Positions 20,478 through 42,918 of a stretch of 64,000 nucleotides of DNA are shown here, in pieces (position 1 is the stretch's first letter; every line of letters starts with the position of its first letter). Under the pieces are notes generated by a model, which did no database searches, was not told where the DNA came from, and worked only from the letters and a program-made list of their open reading frames with translations. Origin of the DNA: Fibrobacterota bacterium (GTDB lineage: Bacteria; Fibrobacterota; Fibrobacteria; UBA11236; JADFYW01); the NCBI GenBank assembly GCA_042567505.1, contig JBHPJW010000002.1, forward strand, positions 17,686 to 81,685, given 5' to 3'. Both the position numbers and the translations under genes were made by a program.

Positions 20478-20690
20478 AGTGAAGTTGAGTTGTGAGTAAG
20501 GAGTGGGGAGTAGGGAGAAAGGAGTGAAGCTAAGAAAAAATAGAGTAACAAACTCATAATTCAGAATTGTTTGAACTGTAATCATTACTTCATCCTTCAT
20601 AAATCGTTCATCTTTGTTCGTAAATCAAATGCCCAGATTTTGAACACCCCACTCTCCCCACTCCCCACTCCCTACTTTTCACACTTCAGC
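20478..20690. repeat. Inverted arrays of purine-rich heptamers (GAGTGGG/CCCCACT-like) between convergent genes
   Basis: AGTTGTG-AGTAAGG-AGTGGGG-AGTAGGG-AGAAAGG-AGTGAAG on the left; CCCCACT-CTCCCCACT-CCCCACT-CCCTACT on the right. Confidence 0.75.
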
Positions 20691-34039: not shown

Positions 34040-34822
34040 TTAACTCCTGAACGCCTCGATGTACGAGTCCGCGTAGATGGAGCGGTTCATCATGAGTTCG
34101 GCCGTGAGAATGGCATTGACCATTTCATCATCCATCATGTCCAGAATGGCCGCGTCAGCTCCGTTTGCGATAAGCATAGTGATAAAGGTCCTGTCTATCA
34201 GGTGCTTTTGTTTGGTGCCGTTGGAGATATTACTCAGGCCGCACACGATGTGAGGGGGCGGATCGTTGAACAACGTGAATTGATTGGCCGCCTTTAAAAT
34301 CTCAGGAGACTGTTCCTGCATGAACTTGAGGGGCATCACAATCGGATCCAGAAAGAGCTGGTCCGCCTCAAGTCCATATTCCATGGCCTTGGCAAACAGC
34401 ATTCCGGCGTTTTCCACCCGCTTGTCGGCGGTCTTGGGACTGCCTTTGGCGTCCATAGCCAGCCCTATGATGGAGGCGTTGTATTCGGCCACCACCGGAA
34501 ACAGAGCGTCCATGCGCTCGTCAATGGCGGCTACGGAGTTCACCAGGGGAGGTTTCTTGCAGACCGGGATGGCCTCTTTCTGCATAACGATTTTGTTGTT
34601 GTCGATGCTGATGGGGGTTTCCACCTCATTCTGCACGGTCTCTATCATCCAGCACAGATCTTCGGGCTTGTTTGACGCCGTTCCCATGTTCACGTCCAGG
34701 TAGGTGGCGCCCTTGTCAGTCTGTTTTTTTGCCCACTCCCTGATGGGATCCGGGTCTTTGTTGACGATTGCTTCCTTGATGTCCTTAAAGCCGGCGTTAA
34801 TTCTTTCACCGATAAAAATCAT
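34040..34822 (-). CDS. acsE: Methyltetrahydrofolate:corrinoid/Fe-S protein methyltransferase
   Basis: IGERING-like start, LDVNMG, ISID, NSV, DPIVMP and CGLSNISNG pterin-binding barrel; last gene of the acs cluster. Confidence 0.92.
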   Translation of the reverse strand: MIFIGERINAGFKDIKEAIVNKDPDPIREWAKKQTDKGATYLDVNMGTASNKPEDLCWMIETVQNEVETPISIDNNKIVMQKEAIPVCKKPPLVNSVAAIDERMDALFPVVAEYNASIIGLAMDAKGSPKTADKRVENAGMLFAKAMEYGLEADQLFLDPIVMPLKFMQEQSPEILKAANQFTLFNDPPPHIVCGLSNISNGTKQKHLIDRTFITMLIANGADAAILDMMDDEMVNAILTAELMMNRSIYADSYIEAFRS

Positions 34823-34838
34823 TTTTTGTCTCCTTTCC

Positions 34839-35795
34839 TTATGATAATCTCTCTATGGTCTGTCGCATTGTCTTAATGGCTACAGGATGGGCCATCACCA
34901 AGATGTCGGTCCCCGCCTGGAGATAATCCGCCGCGCAGGCGGCTTCCCACATCGGCCCCCTTCTTTCAGGGTCTCCCCAGCCCGGTAGCACGTCTTCTCC
35001 GGCGCTGGCGTCTTTTATTCTCCACACTTCGCCGCCCACATCGGCCAGCTGCGGGGCCGCCATGAGCTTGTCTCCCTTGAGTCCCGTGGTCCGGGCCCTT
35101 TCCAGGATAGTATATACATAGTCAAGGCCGTACCCCAGGGCGGCGGTGGTTTGGAACATGACAACGTCCTTGAGATCATAACCGGCGTCCTGCAGGAGTA
35201 TATTCACCTGCTTGCCGATGTTAATGTCCACCGGAGCCTCTGAGATAATTTTGTGCTTGTCGGCTTTGCAGATGGCGACCACGGTCTTGTAATTGCTCTC
35301 TTTGGCGGAGCCTATCAGGCAGTTCTCGCCCCTGGCCGCGGCCGAGCATTCCTGCAGCACGGAAGCGTCCTTGTCATCGTCTCCGCAGCCCCAGATTATC
35401 AGGGGAACATCCACCGCCTTCAGCACGTCCTGCACCACTTTAGCGCAGTCGGAGGCCGAATTATTTTTTCCCGAAGGATCGGCCCCTATCATGCTCAGGC
35501 TTATCAGGTCGCAGCCGAACTCGCTCACGCATTTCTTCGCCCAGTCGGCCGGGGAATTTATCTCATCGCCTATGGCTTTCTTTAAAAAACCAGGCCAATC
35601 AGGAGGAATGTCGGCTACATATCCGGCTATCACCGGCGGATTGGCTATTTCCCCCTCAAATGTCATGGAGGGCAGGGTGGTGTGTCCGCCCACAGTCACG
35701 GTCTTTCCCCGTGTACCGCCCTGCTCCGAAGCAGCGCCCAGCGTTACCTCATTTATTTTGCTTGTCCATCTCTCATTTACCTTGGGTATTTCCAT
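34839..35795 (-). CDS. acsD: Corrinoid Fe-S protein small (delta) subunit
   Basis: VTLGA...GGTR...VTVGG, TAALGYGLDY, RGPMWE and GTDILVMAHP motifs. Confidence 0.95.
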   Translation of the reverse strand: MEIPKVNERWTSKINEVTLGAASEQGGTRGKTVTVGGHTTLPSMTFEGEIANPPVIAGYVADIPPDWPGFLKKAIGDEINSPADWAKKCVSEFGCDLISLSMIGADPSGKNNSASDCAKVVQDVLKAVDVPLIIWGCGDDDKDASVLQECSAAARGENCLIGSAKESNYKTVVAICKADKHKIISEAPVDINIGKQVNILLQDAGYDLKDVVMFQTTAALGYGLDYVYTILERARTTGLKGDKLMAAPQLADVGGEVWRIKDASAGEDVLPGWGDPERRGPMWEAACAADYLQAGTDILVMAHPVAIKTMRQTIERLS

Positions 35796-36546
35796 TTTTT
35801 CCTCCTATTTTTTCCATCATAAAAAAGATACCTTCCTTTGCCGGAGAGTTCAATTTCCGAAGGGACTCGCTGTTGAAAATCGCCTCCTCAACGGCTTCAT
35901 CTTCCGGCACATCAAATAAATATTCCATCTGTGTTTCCTCAGCCAATTTCTTTATGCTTTCCCTTCGACCCTCCTTGAGCATGTTAGTGACCAGGTATTT
36001 TTTTCCCACCGGATTTTTCAGCTTCCTAGTTATCTGCTCGATGTTCTTAGCGGTATTCAGGGAAATGGGGTTGTTGTTCACCACCACTACCAAGATGTCA
36101 ATGTTCGAGGTCGTCCGGCGGCTGATGTGCTCAAGCCCGGCCTCATTATCGATGACCACCCATTTATAGGATGGCGTGAGATCCGCGTGGAACTTCCTTA
36201 TCAGGTTGTTGAGCGCGCAATAACACCCCGAACCCTCTCCCCTGCCCATGGTGATGAGATCAAAGCCTTCGGCCTCCTCCACTATTCCGTGCAGGCCGGC
36301 CTCCATGTAGTTTGCCTTGGTCATGCCGGGGGGAAAGTCCTTCATCTCTTCCAGGACCTCGTTGCGCAGGTCCCCGATGGACTGCCCTGTGGTGATGCCA
36401 AGCAGGGTGCCCAGGTTCGAGTCCGGGTCGGCGTCAATGGCCAGCACCGGCCCCATGTTTTTGGTGATGAGGTAATCGACGATCAACGCGGCAATGGTAG
36501 TCTTGCCTGTGCCGCCTTTGCCTGCTACGGCTAGTGTTTTGGCCAA
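35773..36546 (-). CDS. cooC: CooC/AcsF nickel-insertion ATPase
   Basis: GKGGTGKTT, DADPDSNL, GSGCYC and DNEAGLEHISR motifs. Confidence 0.92.
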   Translation of the reverse strand: MAKTLAVAGKGGTGKTTIAALIVDYLITKNMGPVLAIDADPDSNLGTLLGITTGQSIGDLRNEVLEEMKDFPPGMTKANYMEAGLHGIVEEAEGFDLITMGRGEGSGCYCALNNLIRKFHADLTPSYKWVVIDNEAGLEHISRRTTSNIDILVVVVNNNPISLNTAKNIEQITRKLKNPVGKKYLVTNMLKEGRRESIKKLAEETQMEYLFDVPEDEAVEEAIFNSESLRKLNSPAKEGIFFMMEKIGGKNGNTQGK

Positions 36547-36570
36547 GGTAAAGGCCTCCCTGGGAATAGG

Positions 36571-36607
36571 TTGGAGTAATGGAGTACTGGAGTGATGGAG
36601 TATTGGG
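36571..36607. repeat. Left arm: 9-bp tandem repeat (TGGAGTNNT) inverted relative to 37081-37117
   Basis: TTGGAGTAATGGAGTACTGGAGTGATGGAGTATTGGG; 33/37 match to the reverse complement of the other arm. Confidence 0.92.
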
Positions 36608-36631
36608 TTCTTTTTTGGGGTGATGACGTCC

Positions 36632-37093
36632 TCATTTCATACCGCTTTCATATGAGTAAACATCATCACGCTCTTTTTCTGTAAGGGAGTCTACCCAATC
36701 TCCATGATTCCTTTTATGTTCCAGGCTCTCAACCAATTTGAGCAAACCGTTTTCCAATTTATATGCTAGTGCATCTAATTTTTCATAATCTTCGTCTGTA
36801 ATCTGCTCGGCTTTCTTATAGGCAATATTACCTGATACAGATTCACCCAGAGAACCCAAGGCAATATTCAAGAACTGAAGATATTCCCGTATTGACTTTC
36901 TACAGTATCCTTCAGCGATATTCCCGTGGATGGAATCGCTGGATACAATAGCCTGAGAGGCAATCCGTTTTAAATGATAAGTAAATTTGCTGTACACTTT
37001 ACTTGATGATACATAGTAGTCCACTGCATCCCGCCATACCCGCAGCTTCTGATATCCACGATTCTTGTTTCTGTTCTTCCCCCAATACTCCAT
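36632..37093 (-). CDS. Four-helix-bundle protein (23S rRNA intervening sequence protein / Avd-like family)
   Basis: GYQKLRVWRDA, Q...SS.SI.GNIAEGYCR...EYLQFLNIALGSL.E motifs; AT-richer than its neighbours. Start is the ATG at 37093 or the TTG at 37117. Confidence 0.9.
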   Translation of the reverse strand: MEYWGKNRNKNRGYQKLRVWRDAVDYYVSSSKVYSKFTYHLKRIASQAIVSSDSIHGNIAEGYCRKSIREYLQFLNIALGSLGESVSGNIAYKKAEQITDEDYEKLDALAYKLENGLLKLVESLEHKRNHGDWVDSLTEKERDDVYSYESGMK

Positions 37094-37117
37094 TACTCCA
37101 ACACTCCAGTACTCCAA
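37081..37117. repeat. Right arm of the 9-bp-unit inverted repeat
   Basis: CCCAATACTCCATTACTCCAACACTCCAGTACTCCAA; begins a few bp after the acsV stop codon on the coding strand. Confidence 0.92.
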
Positions 37118-37121
37118 AGGG

Positions 37122-39008
37122 TTAAGCTTCTGCTCCAGAAAAGTATTCTATATCCGTATGCGGCAAAAACATCGCCTTCTGAAACTCCTCCACGTAGTCA
37201 TCCGCGCCCATCAGGTCATAGTAGGTGGTGTTCTCCTCTATTTCCCTGGTCTTTTTAAATCCCTCCCGGTGCAGCGCGGCAATTTTGGCTCCCATCAGGG
37301 ACGTATTCCCCGCAAACTTCACCCTCTCCCGGGGTATGTTTGGAATGAGCCCGATGTTGATTGCGTTATTTATGTTTATGTGTTTGCCAAAGGCTCCCGC
37401 CAGGAAAAACACATCTATGTCTGAAAATTGCATGTCGAGCCGGTGCAGCATGATTTTCATAGCCGCGAAAATCGCCGCCTTGGCCGTTATGATATTTTCA
37501 ATATCAGCTTCTGAAATAAATATCATTGACTTGTTGCGCTTCTCGTTTCTCTTTAACAATACATATTGCCTGATGCCATCCTTTTTCTTAATCCTGTCAG
37601 GCGGGCCGTCTACGATTTTCCCGGAACGGTTGATGATTTTCCGCTCAAGCATGACGCTGATGAGATCGATGATGCCGGAGCCGCAGATTCCCCGGGGAGG
37701 GACATTTCCAATGGTCTCGAAACAAAGCCTGCCTCTCTTTACGGACACTTTTTCTATGGCCCCTTCTTCAGCCCGCATGCCGCATTCCACGCTGGCGCCT
37801 TCCAGCGCCGGACCGGCCGAGGCGGAACAGGACATCATCCACTCCCGGTTGCCCACGATTATCTCGCCATTAGTGCCGATGTCAACCAGCAGCGACATTT
37901 TTTCGCTGTTATACATGCCGGTGGCCAGGATGCCGGCGGTCAAGTCGCTGCCCACCCAGCCGCTGATGCCCGGCAGGCAGTAGAGGAGGCCCGTGGGATT
38001 GATTCTGAGCCCTACTTCCCCGGCCCTCAGCACCGGAGGTTCAACCGACGACGATACATAGGGCGTACGACGGATGTTCCTGGTGGGCAGGTCGAGCAGA
38101 AAGTGGGTCATGGGAGTGTTTCCCGCGCATACAACCGCGTTCACATCCCGTATCTTAACGCCGCTTTGCTTGAGCAGGCCCTTAATGAGCCTGTTGATGT
38201 CCCGGACCAGCGCCTCGTGCAGTTTGTCATCGCCTTTTTTTTCCGCCGCAATCATGCGGGCGGTTACTTCCCTTCCATAAGTCATCTGGGAATTGAAACA
38301 TGCCGCCGCTCCTGCGGTCTTATGCGAGACCGCGTCAATGAGGTGCGCCACCAGGGTGGTGGTCCCCATGTCAACTACTATCAGGTAGTTATCCATTTCC
38401 GTATTCCCGCCTTCCATATTCATCAGGCGCATAGAGTCTCCGTTAACGCCCACGGTGGCGGTCACACGGAATTTGTGCTTGCGGAGCCCGCCGGGAAGGC
38501 ACTTGATGATGGAAAGCGGCGTGGTAATCGTTGAAACTCCGAGTTTCTTCCTGATGGCGGCGCATACCCGTTGATGATCAGCCATGTTTGATGCCAGGGT
38601 CGGTTCCTCCAGTTCCAGATAGATTTTTTTTACTAAAGGTGATGGGATGAATTCCAGTTCCCGCAATTTGGTATCAAGCTGTGCAAATCGGCGAAGGTCA
38701 CTGTCCACGGCTGTTTTTTTCCTGACCAGGGATTTTCTGGGGATCTCGACCGTAAGATCGGATTCCGCTTCTGCCAGGCAGGAAAGCACCATGCCCCCGC
38801 CGGCCTCTTCCCGCGTCAACCTTTCCGAGATCCCTCCGGCGGTTTTTCCCTTCTTCACCTTCATCCGGCAACCGCCGCAGGTTCCTTCGCCTCCGCACAG
38901 ACTATTGACCAGGATCCCTGCCCTGGAAGCCGCTTCTAAAAGGGTTGCGCCTTTATCAACCTGAACGGTTTTTTTTTGTGGAAGAAAAGTGACCTTACAT
39001 GAAGGCAT
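37122..39008 (-). CDS. acsV: Reductive activator of CFeSP (RACo/AcsV; 2Fe-2S plus ASKHA ATPase)
   Basis: N-terminal CGGEGTCGGC...C; DMGTTT, DIGTNGEI, SAGPALEG and GICGSG motifs. Confidence 0.92.
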   Translation of the reverse strand: MPSCKVTFLPQKKTVQVDKGATLLEAASRAGILVNSLCGGEGTCGGCRMKVKKGKTAGGISERLTREEAGGGMVLSCLAEAESDLTVEIPRKSLVRKKTAVDSDLRRFAQLDTKLRELEFIPSPLVKKIYLELEEPTLASNMADHQRVCAAIRKKLGVSTITTPLSIIKCLPGGLRKHKFRVTATVGVNGDSMRLMNMEGGNTEMDNYLIVVDMGTTTLVAHLIDAVSHKTAGAAACFNSQMTYGREVTARMIAAEKKGDDKLHEALVRDINRLIKGLLKQSGVKIRDVNAVVCAGNTPMTHFLLDLPTRNIRRTPYVSSSVEPPVLRAGEVGLRINPTGLLYCLPGISGWVGSDLTAGILATGMYNSEKMSLLVDIGTNGEIIVGNREWMMSCSASAGPALEGASVECGMRAEEGAIEKVSVKRGRLCFETIGNVPPRGICGSGIIDLISVMLERKIINRSGKIVDGPPDRIKKKDGIRQYVLLKRNEKRNKSMIFISEADIENIITAKAAIFAAMKIMLHRLDMQFSDIDVFFLAGAFGKHININNAINIGLIPNIPRERVKFAGNTSLMGAKIAALHREGFKKTREIEENTTYYDLMGADDYVEEFQKAMFLPHTDIEYFSGAEA

Positions 39009-39013
39009 CTATT

Positions 39014-40345
39014 TTATTTTTTCCAATTTTCATTCAAAAACGCGGGTATCTTGGATGCCAGTTCAGGCCCGATAATCACTTCTTTCCAGTCTGAAGTGTC
39101 CTCGATTTCCGCCCTGAACACCGGCAGATAGCCCGGAATTATCAGTTTGCGGTGTTTTACCTTATCCGCCACGCCCTGCTCTTGTATGGTCTTCACCACC
39201 TTTTCCACGGAAATTTTGTCCCCCGCGTATGCATTAAGCACTCCCAATCCTTCGGTGTCCACCACGCAGATATAGGCGGGCACCTTGCTCCGTTCCACTT
39301 CCCCTTCCACGCTGAAATAGGTGAGGGAAAAGTTGGTGGTGAAAAGAACTGGCGAATCCTCATTGGGCTGCCCCACTTCGTACAGTTTGGTTTCAACAGT
39401 GTTGGGCTTTTGAGGATCGGTGTAGACATTCTGGACCGTGGTCATGATGGGAAGCAGCTGGCAGGGCTCCACGCCGTTGATAACCACGATACCCGCGTAC
39501 TTAGCCGCGAAGGTGCTGGCTAAGACAGTTTCCACTTCGGGTGAGTCCGCTTCGATATCAACCATGGCGGGAAATCCCAGCTCCCGGAAGTTTTTCTTCA
39601 AGGCCGCTCTTCGGGCAATGGTTATGTTTCTCAGGGTGTCGCCCGCGTTTAGAGAACCAAAGGACAGAACCAGGTCCGTCACGCCCTTGTCCTTGGCCTT
39701 CTTGGCATTGTCAGCCATTTCTTCCAGGTTCGCTCCGCCGATGGCCAGCGGTGCCTTTACGGCAACTGCTACTTCAGCCAGAGCGTCCACGCTGGAAGCG
39801 TCGGCTTTATAAATAAGCGGATTCTGGTCCTTCACGGCCTCCACCGCGGCCTTTAAGGCGTCCGCGGAGCCCATCAGGATCAGGGGAACACTGCTTTTTT
39901 CCGCGGCCAGCTTGGCCCGGCCTGCCGGGTCGCCGCCGTCAACTTCCACAGCGCATAACTCGACTTTGAGTTCTTCGCCAACTCTTATGAATTTGGCATT
40001 ATTGATCTTTTCAATCTTGGCGGCAGCTTCATCATCGGAAAGCGAAGCGGGAACCCGTACCGCAATACCTGTGCCGTGATGAAACTTTTCCTCGTGCCGG
40101 AACATCACTGTTTCCTGACCGAACACAAATTGTTTTCCCTCCGGCCCAATCTTCACCAGCTTCATGGGAGGCGCGGAAGCGTCTGACAATGCTGACTGAG
40201 CGTCATCGGAAATCTCCGGACAGTCGCTTAAAGCTTTCTGCTTGGCCGCGACCTGCATGGCAAAGGCCATACATGTGGGAAAACCGCATTCTTTGCAGTT
40301 AGTTTTGGGTAAACTCTTGTAGATTTGCATTCCTGTTAGTGCCAT
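39014..40345 (-). CDS. acsC: Corrinoid Fe-S protein large (gamma) subunit
   Basis: LPKTNCKECGFPTCMAFA 4Fe-4S motif; YTDPQKP, TTNFSLTY and G.GVL.AYA motifs. Confidence 0.97.
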   Translation of the reverse strand: MALTGMQIYKSLPKTNCKECGFPTCMAFAMQVAAKQKALSDCPEISDDAQSALSDASAPPMKLVKIGPEGKQFVFGQETVMFRHEEKFHHGTGIAVRVPASLSDDEAAAKIEKINNAKFIRVGEELKVELCAVEVDGGDPAGRAKLAAEKSSVPLILMGSADALKAAVEAVKDQNPLIYKADASSVDALAEVAVAVKAPLAIGGANLEEMADNAKKAKDKGVTDLVLSFGSLNAGDTLRNITIARRAALKKNFRELGFPAMVDIEADSPEVETVLASTFAAKYAGIVVINGVEPCQLLPIMTTVQNVYTDPQKPNTVETKLYEVGQPNEDSPVLFTTNFSLTYFSVEGEVERSKVPAYICVVDTEGLGVLNAYAGDKISVEKVVKTIQEQGVADKVKHRKLIIPGYLPVFRAEIEDTSDWKEVIIGPELASKIPAFLNENWKK

Positions 40346-40378
40346 TTGATCCTCCTTAATAAAATCGGTTACGTCTGT

Positions 40379-40697
40379 CGGTGACGGTGACGGTTACGGT
40401 GACGCCTGCCCCCCGCGACGGTTGGGGAATGCCCGTTTCGTCTTTCGGTGATGTTTAGGGTGATACTTCGCCACAAACTGTCATTCCCCGCGAAGGCGGG
40501 GAATCTATAAAGATGGTTGTCCGTGTATAAATTCATTTTGAACAAATCCGAAAAAAAATTACAATTTTTTTTCTGTTTTTGTACTTCCCAATATCTGCTA
40601 TATCTTCTCAACTATTCCCAGATTCCCCGCCTTCGCGGGGAATGACAGGGCGGATTACCTTATTTACTCACTGTCACCGTCACTGTTTCCGTCACAG
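40379..40697. repeat. Nested cassette: hexamer (CGGTGA) tandem arms enclosing a perfect 29-bp REP doublet
   Basis: CGGTGA/CGGTTA x4 at 40379-40404; inverse degenerate array at 40667-40697; CTGTCATTCCCCGCGAAGGCGGGGAATCT at 40478-40506 and its exact reverse complement at 40620-40648. Confidence 0.9.
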
Positions 40698-40698
40698 C

Positions 40699-42918
40699 TT
40701 AAAATAACGGCTCCATCGCCATCACAGGATGTTCCACCTTCTGCAAGTGCTCCATCAGCTTTTCCGGATCTTCCGCGTCTTCTTCGGTGGCTATCTTGTC
40801 AAAGAGGTCCGGCATGCCGGCTTTTTCCAGCTGAGCTTTTAGCCTGTCGCCCACTTCCTCTTTGAGCTGCTTGGGCATCCAGACGATTCTCTGCCATCCG
40901 CCTTCGGCCGATACGAACTTGGGGCTTGAAATATACAGCTTGCCAATCCCGGTAAATCCCGGCATCTGGGCCCCGCCGCCAATTTGGCCTGCCAGGGTGG
41001 AGAATTTCATGCCGATGGGGGTCATGCCGGCAAAGTCCCGGTCTACCACCATGATTCCGGATACTTCGGGAACAACCGCGGCAATGCACTCAAAACAGCC
41101 GCAGGAGGTCATGGGATCTTCCATGATGGAGTAGGCGTTGAACTTCTGCAGGGCGCCGTTGGACTTTACATCGATGTAGTCATTGATGTTCTGCCATGAG
41201 CCCTTTTCCTTGTCCAGTTCCGTGCCCTTTTTCACCGGCTCATTGGGCCCGTGTTCGTCTATCTGAAAGGAGGCCTTGCAATCCAGCCAGGTATAGGCGC
41301 CGCAGAGTCCTAGACGCTGGGGAGTGACAATACAGACATGGTTGGGAGCATATGACTGGCACAGGGTGCATGAGTAAAAATCTTCAACGTCCTCGTCGGT
41401 CATACCGCCGATTTTGTCGTCCCTATCCGAATAAATCGCCCTTGCATTCTCAAGCATTTCCTTGGTCTTGTCCGGGTCAGTGAAAATCTTCACCTGCACG
41501 CGGTCCACAATGGAGGAAAAATCGCCTTTTATCTTGGCCAGCAGTATTTCCCCGAAGTCCTTGATCTTAAAGCCCTTTTCCGCGGCTTCTTTACTGATGC
41601 GCACCCAGATGATATTGCGCTGGCCCATATGGAAAATGCCGTTGGCGCAGGAAATGTATTCATGAATACGCCTCTCCAGCACAGACTCAAAGTCTTCCTG
41701 GAATTCGCGCCCCGCCACCTCTACCAGGATGCCGAAGGGATAGGCCTCTCCCTGTTTCATCTTGTCTATCTCATCACCTATCACTTCTATATTGCCGTCT
41801 TCAATATCATCCATGCCCTTCATGCGCAGCATCTCAAAGGCGTCGGTGTACTTGCCGCCGAACTGCACATGCATGTCTTCTTTCCTGACCCGTTCGCCCT
41901 CAAAACCGGCGCCGTAGGCAACGGGGATGGGGACTTTTTCCACCTTGATGGTCAGCCCGCGCACCTCGATTGCCCTGCTCACCAGGTCTTCGTACTTCAC
42001 TCCTGAAACAACGTGTTCATAAGTGCAGATGCCGGTGGGCAATATCTGGGGAATGTCGGTGTCCGCTATCACGGGGAAACCGTAGTTTATGGCACCCGCG
42101 GCAGTGGCGTATTTCTCGTCGGTGATTATCTGTTCCTTGGTCTCGGCGTTGTCATCGCTGCCCAGCGCCAGCACAAAGGCGAACACGCGCTCCTTGTTGT
42201 ACATCAGGATTTCCTTGGCGGCCTTGAAGCTGCCCGGCTCCACTCCGCCGAAGCTCATGGCGGAACGGGCCGCAAAGTTCAGGGCGTAAATGGCCTGGGT
42301 GATTTCCTTGCCGTAGGGCACCAGGTAGGTGTCCCAGTTCATCTCAAGGCCCTCTGCGGCGGCCTGCTCGGCCACGCATTTGCCGTTGGAGTTGCCTGCC
42401 ATGAACACCAGGATGCTCTTTTCTTGCAGGTCGCGCAGCAGGTCAACCGCTTGCTGGTTGGTCTCGGTGGCGCCTACGATGGCGGCAAAACCCGGCATCC
42501 TGCCGTCCACCAGCTTGATGCCCTGCAGCCGCAGGATGTCGTCTCCGGTAAATCCCAGCCAGATGCCTTCGGCAGTGCCCGGGCCCATCACGTATTTGAG
42601 CGATTCAATTATTTCTTCCGCTATCAGGGTGGCGACGCCGGAATTGAGCGTATCACCCAGGTAGGGAAGCCACAGGCCTTCCGAGGGTATGGGGCCCAGC
42701 AGCTTCTTGGCTTCCTGAAGGGACTCTTCCAAATCACCCAAAGTAGTGACCTTCTGTCCCAGGAACAGGAGCATGATGGGCAGAAAATAGGCGGTGTTGG
42801 GATACTCCACCTTGCATTCCTTGCCTTTGGCTTTAATGGCGGCGGCCAGGTCTTTTTCGGCTCTTGCCACCATGGCATGGGCTCCTCTTATGGCTGCGGT
42901 CGCTATAATCTTTGACAT
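40699..42918 (-). CDS. acsB: Acetyl-CoA synthase (bacterial-type, with N-terminal domain)
   Basis: A-cluster ligands FYSCTLCQS, HVC, RLGLCGA and MTSCGCFEC; PNTAYFLP N-terminus. Confidence 0.98.
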   Translation of the reverse strand: MSKIIATAAIRGAHAMVARAEKDLAAAIKAKGKECKVEYPNTAYFLPIMLLFLGQKVTTLGDLEESLQEAKKLLGPIPSEGLWLPYLGDTLNSGVATLIAEEIIESLKYVMGPGTAEGIWLGFTGDDILRLQGIKLVDGRMPGFAAIVGATETNQQAVDLLRDLQEKSILVFMAGNSNGKCVAEQAAAEGLEMNWDTYLVPYGKEITQAIYALNFAARSAMSFGGVEPGSFKAAKEILMYNKERVFAFVLALGSDDNAETKEQIITDEKYATAAGAINYGFPVIADTDIPQILPTGICTYEHVVSGVKYEDLVSRAIEVRGLTIKVEKVPIPVAYGAGFEGERVRKEDMHVQFGGKYTDAFEMLRMKGMDDIEDGNIEVIGDEIDKMKQGEAYPFGILVEVAGREFQEDFESVLERRIHEYISCANGIFHMGQRNIIWVRISKEAAEKGFKIKDFGEILLAKIKGDFSSIVDRVQVKIFTDPDKTKEMLENARAIYSDRDDKIGGMTDEDVEDFYSCTLCQSYAPNHVCIVTPQRLGLCGAYTWLDCKASFQIDEHGPNEPVKKGTELDKEKGSWQNINDYIDVKSNGALQKFNAYSIMEDPMTSCGCFECIAAVVPEVSGIMVVDRDFAGMTPIGMKFSTLAGQIGGGAQMPGFTGIGKLYISSPKFVSAEGGWQRIVWMPKQLKEEVGDRLKAQLEKAGMPDLFDKIATEEDAEDPEKLMEHLQKVEHPVMAMEPLF

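Follow-up and report, generated by a model that had tools for sequence, protein, structure and literature searches.

A repeat-armed PF05635 gene between acsV and cooC of a Fibrobacterota bacterium resembles an intervening sequence placed in operon mRNA

We analyzed a 64,000-nucleotide stretch of DNA from a Fibrobacterota bacterium (assembly GCA_042567505.1, contig JBHPJW010000002.1, positions 17,686 to 81,685), referred to here as the window, in which a small four-helix-bundle gene bracketed by inverted tandem-repeat arms lies between acsV and cooC of the acs operon. The element is best described as a repeat-armed cassette of the intervening sequence (IVS) type within operon mRNA. In the account that we regard as probable, it is a portable four-helix-bundle cassette that sits in mRNA and shares the design of those IVSs that bear an open reading frame (ORF). 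New here are the equivalence of partner and non-partner arms, the arrays of 3-5 units, roughly 19 gene-less pairs of arrays, and eight loci at which a two-hairpin module takes the place between the arms. To our knowledge, no function has been assigned to the S23p/IVS-protein family, which counts thousands of members and three crystal structures, and we know of no explanation, since 1990, for the tandem heptamer and octamer arrays of the short tandemly repeated repetitive (STRR) type. The locus joins the two in one natural experiment, in which an abutting gene pair has been split and the corresponding site in relatives is empty.

The small ORF has alternative starts at 37117 and 37093 and ends at 36632 on the reverse strand, giving a protein of 161 or 153 residues. 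Residues 23-123 match PF05635 (23S_rRNA_IVP) with an E-value of 1.3e-17 and 64.4 bits, well above the curated cut-off of 33.8 bits (65.2 bits in the genome-wide profile scan), which places the protein in the PF05635/TIGR02436 (S23p) family. Its sequence also matches the XCC0516 structure (2gsc, E=2.4e-6). An AlphaFold monomer model, built with 24 homologues (pLDDT 85), contains helices at residues 18-34, 39-63, 68-94, and 100-130 and superposes on the 2gsc pentamer subunit with a root-mean-square deviation of 0.7 Å and a TM score of 0.93-0.96 (target length); BT_0352 (2rld) and bAvd (4dwl, 8ub7) are matched as well. The predicted fold is thus the four-helix bundle of solved PF05635 members, and the profile match and superpositions bear out the initial annotation, made from the letters of the DNA, that this is an IVS/Avd-like gene. 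The solved PF05635-type structures 2gsc, 2rld, and 4dwl hold five chains each and are homopentameric toroids.

The gene is intact, single-copy in its genome, and retains every residue that is invariant in its clade. It has about 4000 homologues, the best of which are 63-73% identical and occur in unrelated assemblies, some of which bear the label Deltaproteobacteria or Desulfobacterales; close homologues lie on contigs as long as 808 kb and 350 kb. When the window copy was compared with three such loci (L017, L018, and L019), nonsynonymous divergence (dN) was 0.15-0.26 and synonymous divergence (dS) was saturated, so that dN/dS is to be read as a bound only. Because dN is this low while dS is saturated, the protein is maintained, and the gene is functional and under strong purifying selection.

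The place of the cassette was compared across 41 relatives, a set that includes the source genome (G000, a 3.2-Mb assembly that is 66% complete) and no congener, and across five cooC loci from a metagenome scan, which share 40-65% identity and are too distant for base-by-base alignment of the insertion boundaries. In G001, a genome of the same family, acsV and cooC are 12 bp apart. In the metagenome relatives L057 and L058 the acsV stop abuts the cooC start (TAAATG), and the gap in L059 and L061 is 2-3 nt. Beside these five empty junctions (0-12 bp) stand three that are occupied by three different arm families, namely the present one and, with no visible gene, that of L060 and that of G004, a metagenome-assembled genome labelled Fibrobacteria, whose 227-bp gene-less spacer carries inverted AT-rich heptamer-type arrays. 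The L060 sequence (Ga0136653_10068209, positions 1-62) has an AGTTACT-type tandem array that abuts the cooC start where the related L061 has the acsV stop; it is probably a third independent occupation of the junction, and the contig ends there.

The gene clade of the cassette is found in G000 and in 0 of the 40 other relatives. The ~547-bp AT-rich unit of arm, gene, and inverted arm was acquired horizontally, into a junction that normally measures 0-12 bp. A search for empty acsV-cooC junctions had been proposed as a check on the view that a discrete, transposase-less cassette was inserted into the operon, and the five empty sites uphold that view. Nor is the gene a syntenic, vertically inherited one with armless homologues, as its clade is absent from the 40 relatives and its homologues are armed. 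The GC content of the cassette (39-43%, against 48-60% in the flanks) likewise agrees with its first description as AT-rich.

The arms are 37 nt each, enclose 473 nt, and are complementary at 33 of 37 positions (89%). Tandem Repeats Finder (TRF) assigns both a period of 8, with 4.4 and 4.5 copies, and the unit is the octamer T-GGAGT-R-N; the inverted arms matching at 33/37 were thus correctly recognized at the outset, whereas the 9-bp unit then proposed gives way to one of 8. As originally placed, the upstream arm begins 4 nt past the acsV stop and the downstream arm ends 24 nt before the cooC start, and this 24-nt remnant holds the GGGAGG Shine-Dalgarno (SD) sequence of cooC. The unit was also said to supply SD-like GGAG motifs and the start codon of the gene, which holds: the ATG at 37093-37091, which falls in the final unit of the 5' arm, is the only in-frame ATG before the conserved core of the protein, and a likely SD, GGAG, lies within the upstream arm 10 nt before it. 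In homologues the last GGAG stands ~9 nt ahead of the ATG. The unit pattern occurs 7 times in the window against 0.2 expected, a count that 0 of 100 shuffles reached; the exact TGGAGTNN unit has no further occurrence in the window and 49 matches genome-wide. The AGG at both outer ends, once read as a weak duplication, is at chance level, since across 15 family members the observed distribution is that of mismatched pairs.

The make-up of the units is informative about the origin of the stem. Among 128 units, T occupies position 1 in 96%; at position 7, 81% have A and 18% have G; and position 8 is divided almost equally among A, C, and T, with G in 3%. Neighbouring units have a spacer identity of 0.22 (0.24 by chance), and because this sharing is not above chance the arrays are not recent products of slippage. 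The arrays are 3-5 units long. In 15 TGGAGTNN pairs from this genome, partner arms agree at 43 of 88 variable positions (0.49) and non-partner arms at 0.54 (permutation p=0.87). Because partners match no better than non-partners, the arms are independent arrays and not copies of one another; complementarity at 33 of 37 positions is to be expected for any two arrays built from this unit, and there is no selection for exact pairing. The predicted stem therefore arises solely from the conserved 6-7-nt core with its free spacer. A constrained core and a free spacer in 3-5 tandem copies point to repeated sequence-specific recognition.

Homologues of the gene carry arms of their own, and in close ones (65-73% identical) on unrelated contigs these are likewise of the GGAGT type. 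The N-termini often seen in called homologues, such as MEYWSNGV- and MEWWSNGVM-, are in-frame translations of ATGGAGTA.NTGGAGTA arrays, three units making eight codons, and the C-terminus -TPILQHSKVLP of some homologues is the translation of an inverted arm. At the DNA level, L017, L018, and L019 have GGAGTNNN arrays upstream of the gene and ACTCCNNN arrays downstream, in contexts that differ from one locus to the next (acyl-CoA dehydrogenase/FAD oxidase; BrkB/AlaDH; ABC ATPase/acyl-CoA dehydrogenase). The GGAGT core is kept across the window copy and these three loci; because it survives in dS-saturated comparisons, the arm unit is conserved as well, or at least co-maintained. More distant copies are armed with other units, of the TGGAR octamer type in a 46%-identical copy from WOR-3 and of the GGAAGAA heptamer type in a 34%-identical copy from Anaerolineales.

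A survey of the flanks of four-helix-bundle genes, suggested in the initial annotation, extends this picture. The 34 PF05635 loci examined came for the most part from the 41 relatives, and 29 of them are flanked by inverted 7-8-mer arrays with an inverted-repeat score of 12-33, whereas 60 control positions shifted by +/-900 bp gave a median score of 8 and a maximum of 12; the failures were mostly at contig ends. The period of the arms is 7 in most lineages and 8 in the clade of the cassette. The repeat-armed PF05635 design is general and widespread; our literature search found no description of it beyond ribosomal RNA and no paper that generalizes it or links the family to tandem-repeat arrays.

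In the sense RNA (36540-37140), the arms form a closing stem of ~39 bp with single mismatches in both the minimum-free-energy (MFE) and the centroid structure (z=-6.7), in line with the long stem first envisaged for the polycistronic mRNA. With its 33/37 arms and its stem in both structures, the cassette thus has the inverted repeats that close a stem round the S23p ORF of a 23S rRNA IVS. The cassette has no site resembling a terminator, and such promoter matches as it shows do not rise above chance; lacking a promoter or terminator of its own, it is presumably transcribed within the acs mRNA. The genome encodes an RNase III (G000:C203:9270-9653). We propose that the arms pair in the acs mRNA to give the ~39-bp stem, with regularly spaced mismatches, and that RNase III may cut this stem, by analogy with rRNA IVSs and Correia elements. 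Such a cut would release the small-gene RNA and split acsB-acsC-acsV from cooC-acsD-acsE, and cooC would still have a ribosome-binding site of its own. The small gene would be translated from the SD and ATG within the 5' arm and, because of this location, in competition with stem formation: translation could proceed only until the 3' arm has been made, or for as long as ribosomes hold the stem open. The most likely ligand of the predicted pentameric protein would be the cassette's own arms, given their arrays of 3-5 units with conserved core and free spacer. Should RNase III indeed cleave the arms in mRNA, intervening sequences would extend from rRNA to operon transcripts; this would open a new route by which selfish cassettes reshape operon expression, here that of the Wood-Ljungdahl genes of Fibrobacterota, in an unusual lineage.

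Several observations weigh against this account. The stem would bury the SD and ATG of the small gene, though its protein is clearly under selection, and the variable positions of partner arms show no compensatory matching, contrary to selection for a perfect stem. Co-orientation of the small gene with its upstream neighbour is a tendency only (17 versus 7) and comes from crude ORF calls, in which at least the gene downstream of the L018 copy was mis-called. As to mobility, no target-site duplication was seen in 15 family members compared with a mismatched-pair null, and no PF01797 match, the sign of a Y1/RAYT-type enzyme, was found in the 66%-complete assembly. Finally, the S23p protein of Coxiella is probably not produced (PMC4990558).

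The ORF-bearing 23S IVSs of Coxiella, Leptospira, Brucella, and Xanthomonas (PMC4990558) share with the cassette a PF05635/S23p gene in a stem-bounded insert of ~0.4-0.55 kb, variable-copy tandem 7-8-nt repeats directly 5' of the ORF, the lack of a transposase, a sporadic, horizontal-looking distribution, and transcription inside a host RNA. In Coxiella burnetii, RNase III excises the helix-45 IVS with the S23p ORF inside, and 3-4 tandem GACAGAT heptamers, whose number varies among strains, lie just upstream of that ORF (PMC4990558). The cassette differs in that its host RNA is an operon mRNA and both of its arms are clear arrays of 4-5 octamers. Its gene is intact and subject to purifying selection, in contrast to the Coxiella ORF, which is in decay and probably goes untranslated; excision by RNase III has been demonstrated for Coxiella and is proposed by analogy for the cassette. 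In the strict sense of an insertion into helix 25 or 45, the cassette is not a 23S rRNA IVS, as it lies between acsV and cooC and the locus has no Rfam rRNA match. The closest precedent for an intervening sequence of mRNA is given by the Correia elements, also known as NEMIS (PMC2649163; reviewed in PMC10969869), which are likewise small inverted-repeat elements in intercistronic spacers; they are co-transcribed with operons, and the action of RNase III on their hairpins alters the expression of neighbouring genes. The enzyme binds or cleaves the hairpins of Correia repeat enclosed elements (CREE) in Neisseria mRNAs (PMC2649163). CREE are bounded by unique 26-bp terminal inverted repeats, show a TA target duplication, and lack a gene; the cassette, in contrast, has tandem-array arms, no target-site duplication, and a conserved gene between the arms.

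Similar arms without a gene, already noted elsewhere in the window, were located as pairs at 20495-20676 and 40376-40695. The latter, in the acsB-acsC spacer, encloses a perfect 29-nt inverted repeat, CTGTCATTCCCCGCGAAGGCGGGGAATCT, and the RNA fold of the spacer closes on its arrays (z=-7.5); the acsB-acsC spacers of G001 (97 bp) and G004 (~170 bp) contain no arrays. Across the source genome there are ~85 GGAGT-type arrays, including ~19 inverted gene-less pairs and ~47 solo arrays, and most pairs enclose 70-130 bp. At eight loci, the insert between TGGAGTNN arms is a ~55-nt module made up of two short GC hairpins, which occurs in both orientations and only inside such arms. Within this module 93% of cells pair, sliding the alignment lowers the figure to 26-56%, and compensatory changes occur at 4 of 11 pairs. 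Four module copies contain a 33-40-nt mini-element, CCTTCTTGCTCTCCGAAGCATACTTGAGAAGGATGGG, at the same position in the loop of hairpin 1 and nowhere else in the assembly; as a nested insertion, it is reminiscent of cyanobacterial small dispersed repeats. Nested 'small dispersed repeats' of Nostoc were reportedly described by Elhai et al. (2008, Genome Res). The gene-bearing cassette and the gene-less elements have the arms in common and not the two-hairpin module, and no Rfam family matches either.

A different and more tentative reading makes the arms primarily tandem sites for the cassette's own putative pentamer, one unit per subunit in the manner of TRAP, with the inverted layout and the stem as secondary features. 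TRAP binds spaced triplets on single-stranded RNA (ssRNA). The protein would regulate its own expression, or would protect or package RNAs, or single-stranded DNA (ssDNA), that bear the unit, and would find additional targets in the gene-less arrays. The pairing of a conserved 6-7-nt core with a free spacer, suggestive of sequence-specific recognition, the lack of a slippage signature, and the 3-5 units per array all fit, as do a core that is kept in orthologues with saturated synonymous sites and drifts to TGGAR in the 46%-identical copy, partner arms without compensatory pairing, and family members that are homopentameric toroids (2gsc, 2rld, 4dwl). The homologue Avd contacts nucleic acid and reverse transcriptase (RT) in the ribonucleoprotein of a diversity-generating retroelement (DGR; 8ub7).

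The distribution of arrays bears on the same reading from both sides. Three tandem TGGAGTNN units occur 49 times in G000 (reversed control 0), 5 times in G004, as 1 long array in G005, and 0 times in the 38 others; G000, which thus leads the 41 genomes in TGGAGTNN arrays, is also the sole carrier of this gene clade. Part of this correlation, however, is accounted for by joint inheritance of gene and arms, and for most array families of G000 the 66%-complete assembly contains no matching PF05635 gene. G004 has its few TGGAGTNN arrays without the gene, and the WOR-3 genome has the gene with the arm unit at the cassette only and no dispersed arrays, both of which speak against a simple model in which the gene drives the arrays. 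An extension of this reading, which we offer with still more reserve, is that the PF05635 pentamer would be a sequence-specific reader of tandem 7-8-nt units on ssRNA or ssDNA, with one core (TGGAGT) per subunit. Gene and arms would then form a self-contained, horizontally moving module, of which the 23S IVSs would be the rRNA-borne members, and the STRR-type arrays dispersed over many bacterial genomes would be the footprint or targets of such proteins. The array in G005 (C1:1364891-1364944) is a long, perfect (TGGAGTGC)n array in a complete 1.6-Mb genome of the same family that lacks this gene clade.

We think it unlikely that the cassette is a mobile element at the DNA level, of the kind of a miniature inverted-repeat transposable element (MITE) or of REPIN-RAYT, in which the arrays would be terminal repeats for an enzyme acting in trans, or for the four-helix-bundle protein itself, and the gene-less pairs would be non-autonomous derivatives. 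Such a history would suit one gene copy beside the many gene-less pairs and solo arrays of the same unit, a junction variably occupied by different arm families, nested mini-insertions within the gene-less copies, and a layout that resembles RAYT genes between REP sequences (PMC3116915). It sits poorly with the missing target-site duplication, with arms that are not mutual copies, with gene-less copies that share the arms only and have an unrelated two-hairpin module as their interior, with a helical-bundle protein that has no known nuclease fold, with the failure to detect a Y1/RAYT transposase in the incomplete (66%) assembly, and with a WOR-3 genome that shows no dispersal. Spread of the cassette by way of its repeats, as first suggested, is not supported, for several of the same reasons (independent arms, no Y1/RAYT enzyme, no dispersed arrays in WOR-3) and because the gene is single-copy.

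Neither class of element describes the cassette. It is not a MITE, as there is no target-site duplication, a conserved gene is carried, and the arms are tandem arrays instead of mutual copies. In REPIN-RAYT systems (PMC3116915), too, a gene lies between inverted copies of a short repeat, and doublets of that repeat, able to form hairpins, are scattered over the spacers of the genome; but RAYT belongs to the Y1 (IS200-like) transposases, and each REP is a single palindrome. The cassette instead has tandem-array repeats around a PF05635 gene, which encodes a four-helix bundle without a known catalytic fold, and the PF01797 scan of the 66%-complete assembly returned no Y1 enzyme.

Coincidence, in which STRR-like heptamer and octamer arrays happen to flank an ordinary small gene, is very improbable: the genome does have ~200 arrays of period 7 and ~75 of period 8, which belong to eight or more unit families, but the same arms stand at homologues in unrelated genomes, 0 of the 60 shifted controls scored above 12 where 29 of the 34 PF05635 loci are flanked by inverted arrays, and genomes without dispersed arrays are still armed at the gene. 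We give almost no weight to the small gene being the DGR accessory protein Avd itself, for which a fold like that of bAvd (4dwl, 8ub7; TM ~0.85 on target length) and the inclusion of Avd proteins in PF05635 (PMC10053308) could be cited, as its neighbours are acsV and cooC, there is no template/variable repeat pair, the assembly has a single RVT_1 gene, located on a different contig (C176), and identity to bAvd is 7-8%. The likeness to DGR bAvd (4dwl, 8ub7) is one of a homologous pentameric four-helix-bundle fold, with Avd working in a ribonucleoprotein with structured RNA; the cassette departs from it in having no nearby RT or template/variable repeats, in its very low identity, and in its genomic packaging. 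With no adjacent RT and no such repeats, the gene is not classed as a DGR Avd. A telomerase-like or RT-templated origin of the arms is not proposed, the variable positions being unlike those of adenine-specific mutagenesis.

The arrays of the source genome are short, intergenic, imperfect 7-8-nt arrays of many families in one genome and in this respect are STRR-like. STRR-type repeats of cyanobacteria, Xanthomonas, Nostoc, and Beggiatoaceae are likewise intergenic arrays of 2-6 imperfect 7-8-nt units, often in convergent (inverted) pairs and with nested mini-elements. Examples are the GGGAATC/GGGGAYT repeats of Xanthomonas and Nostoc (PMC4692102) and the TAACTGA repeats of Beggiatoaceae (PMC4679880). 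One paper of this set (PMC4692102, PMC4679880) raises the idea that the mobile agent might be an unidentified protein that binds the repeats, and neither links arrays to PF05635 genes. Unlike these repeats, the arrays described here bracket a PF05635 gene, and the core of their unit is conserved with that gene across hosts.

Table 1. Positions of the cassette, its operon neighbours, and related gene-less elements. Positions without a contig prefix are those of the window; C-numbered contigs belong to the source assembly.
Feature	Position	Strand	Basis or remark
Upstream arm, gene sense T-(TGGAGTNN)x4-TGGG	37081-37117	-	Likely SD and ATG inside; TRF arrays
Four-helix-bundle gene, PF05635/TIGR02436 family, 153 aa from in-arm ATG	36632-37093	-	Pfam match
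Downstream arm, gene sense CCCA-(NNACTCCA)x4-A	36571-36607	-	24 nt short of cooC TTG
acsB	42918-40699	-	acs operon gene
acsC	40345-39014	-	acs operon gene
acsV/RACo (reductive activator of corrinoid protein), upstream neighbour	37122-39008	-	Pfam RACo_C_ter, Raco_middle, RACo_linker, Fer2
cooC (carbon monoxide dehydrogenase (CODH) nickel-insertion ATPase), downstream neighbour, TTG start	35773-36546	-	Operon gene
acsD	35795-34839	-	acs operon gene
acsE	34822-34040	-	acs operon gene
Gene-less inverted GGAGTRG heptamer pair, 32 nt, 84% complementary, 118 nt apart	20495-20526 / 20645-20676	.	Between convergent genes
Gene-less inverted GTGACN hexamer pair, 353-bp acsB-acsC spacer	40376-40404 / 40668-40695	-	TRF, fold
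Two-hairpin module loci, among others	C13:24309-24460, C13:39139-39292, C35:34872-35019, C46:10819-10959, C207:467-587		
Mini-element copies	C1:137790, C80:347, C180:4208, C203:4676		

The operon that hosts the cassette is a complete acs/CODH operon (34040-42918) for the carbonyl branch of the Wood-Ljungdahl pathway, with relatives labelled Fibrobacteria; to judge from cultures, this is unusual for the phylum. In G004, a weak PF05635 match (C110:5205-5426; E=3e-11, profile positions 8-80 only) lies on the same contig as the acs operon, ~9 kb from it. The source genome has a second PF05635 gene (C153:18431-19274), with inverted arms of the AATCRN type, which sits between the nearly identical gene ends (...NPYYGAAML.CGEIKEEIGGQ*) of two tandem paralogues.

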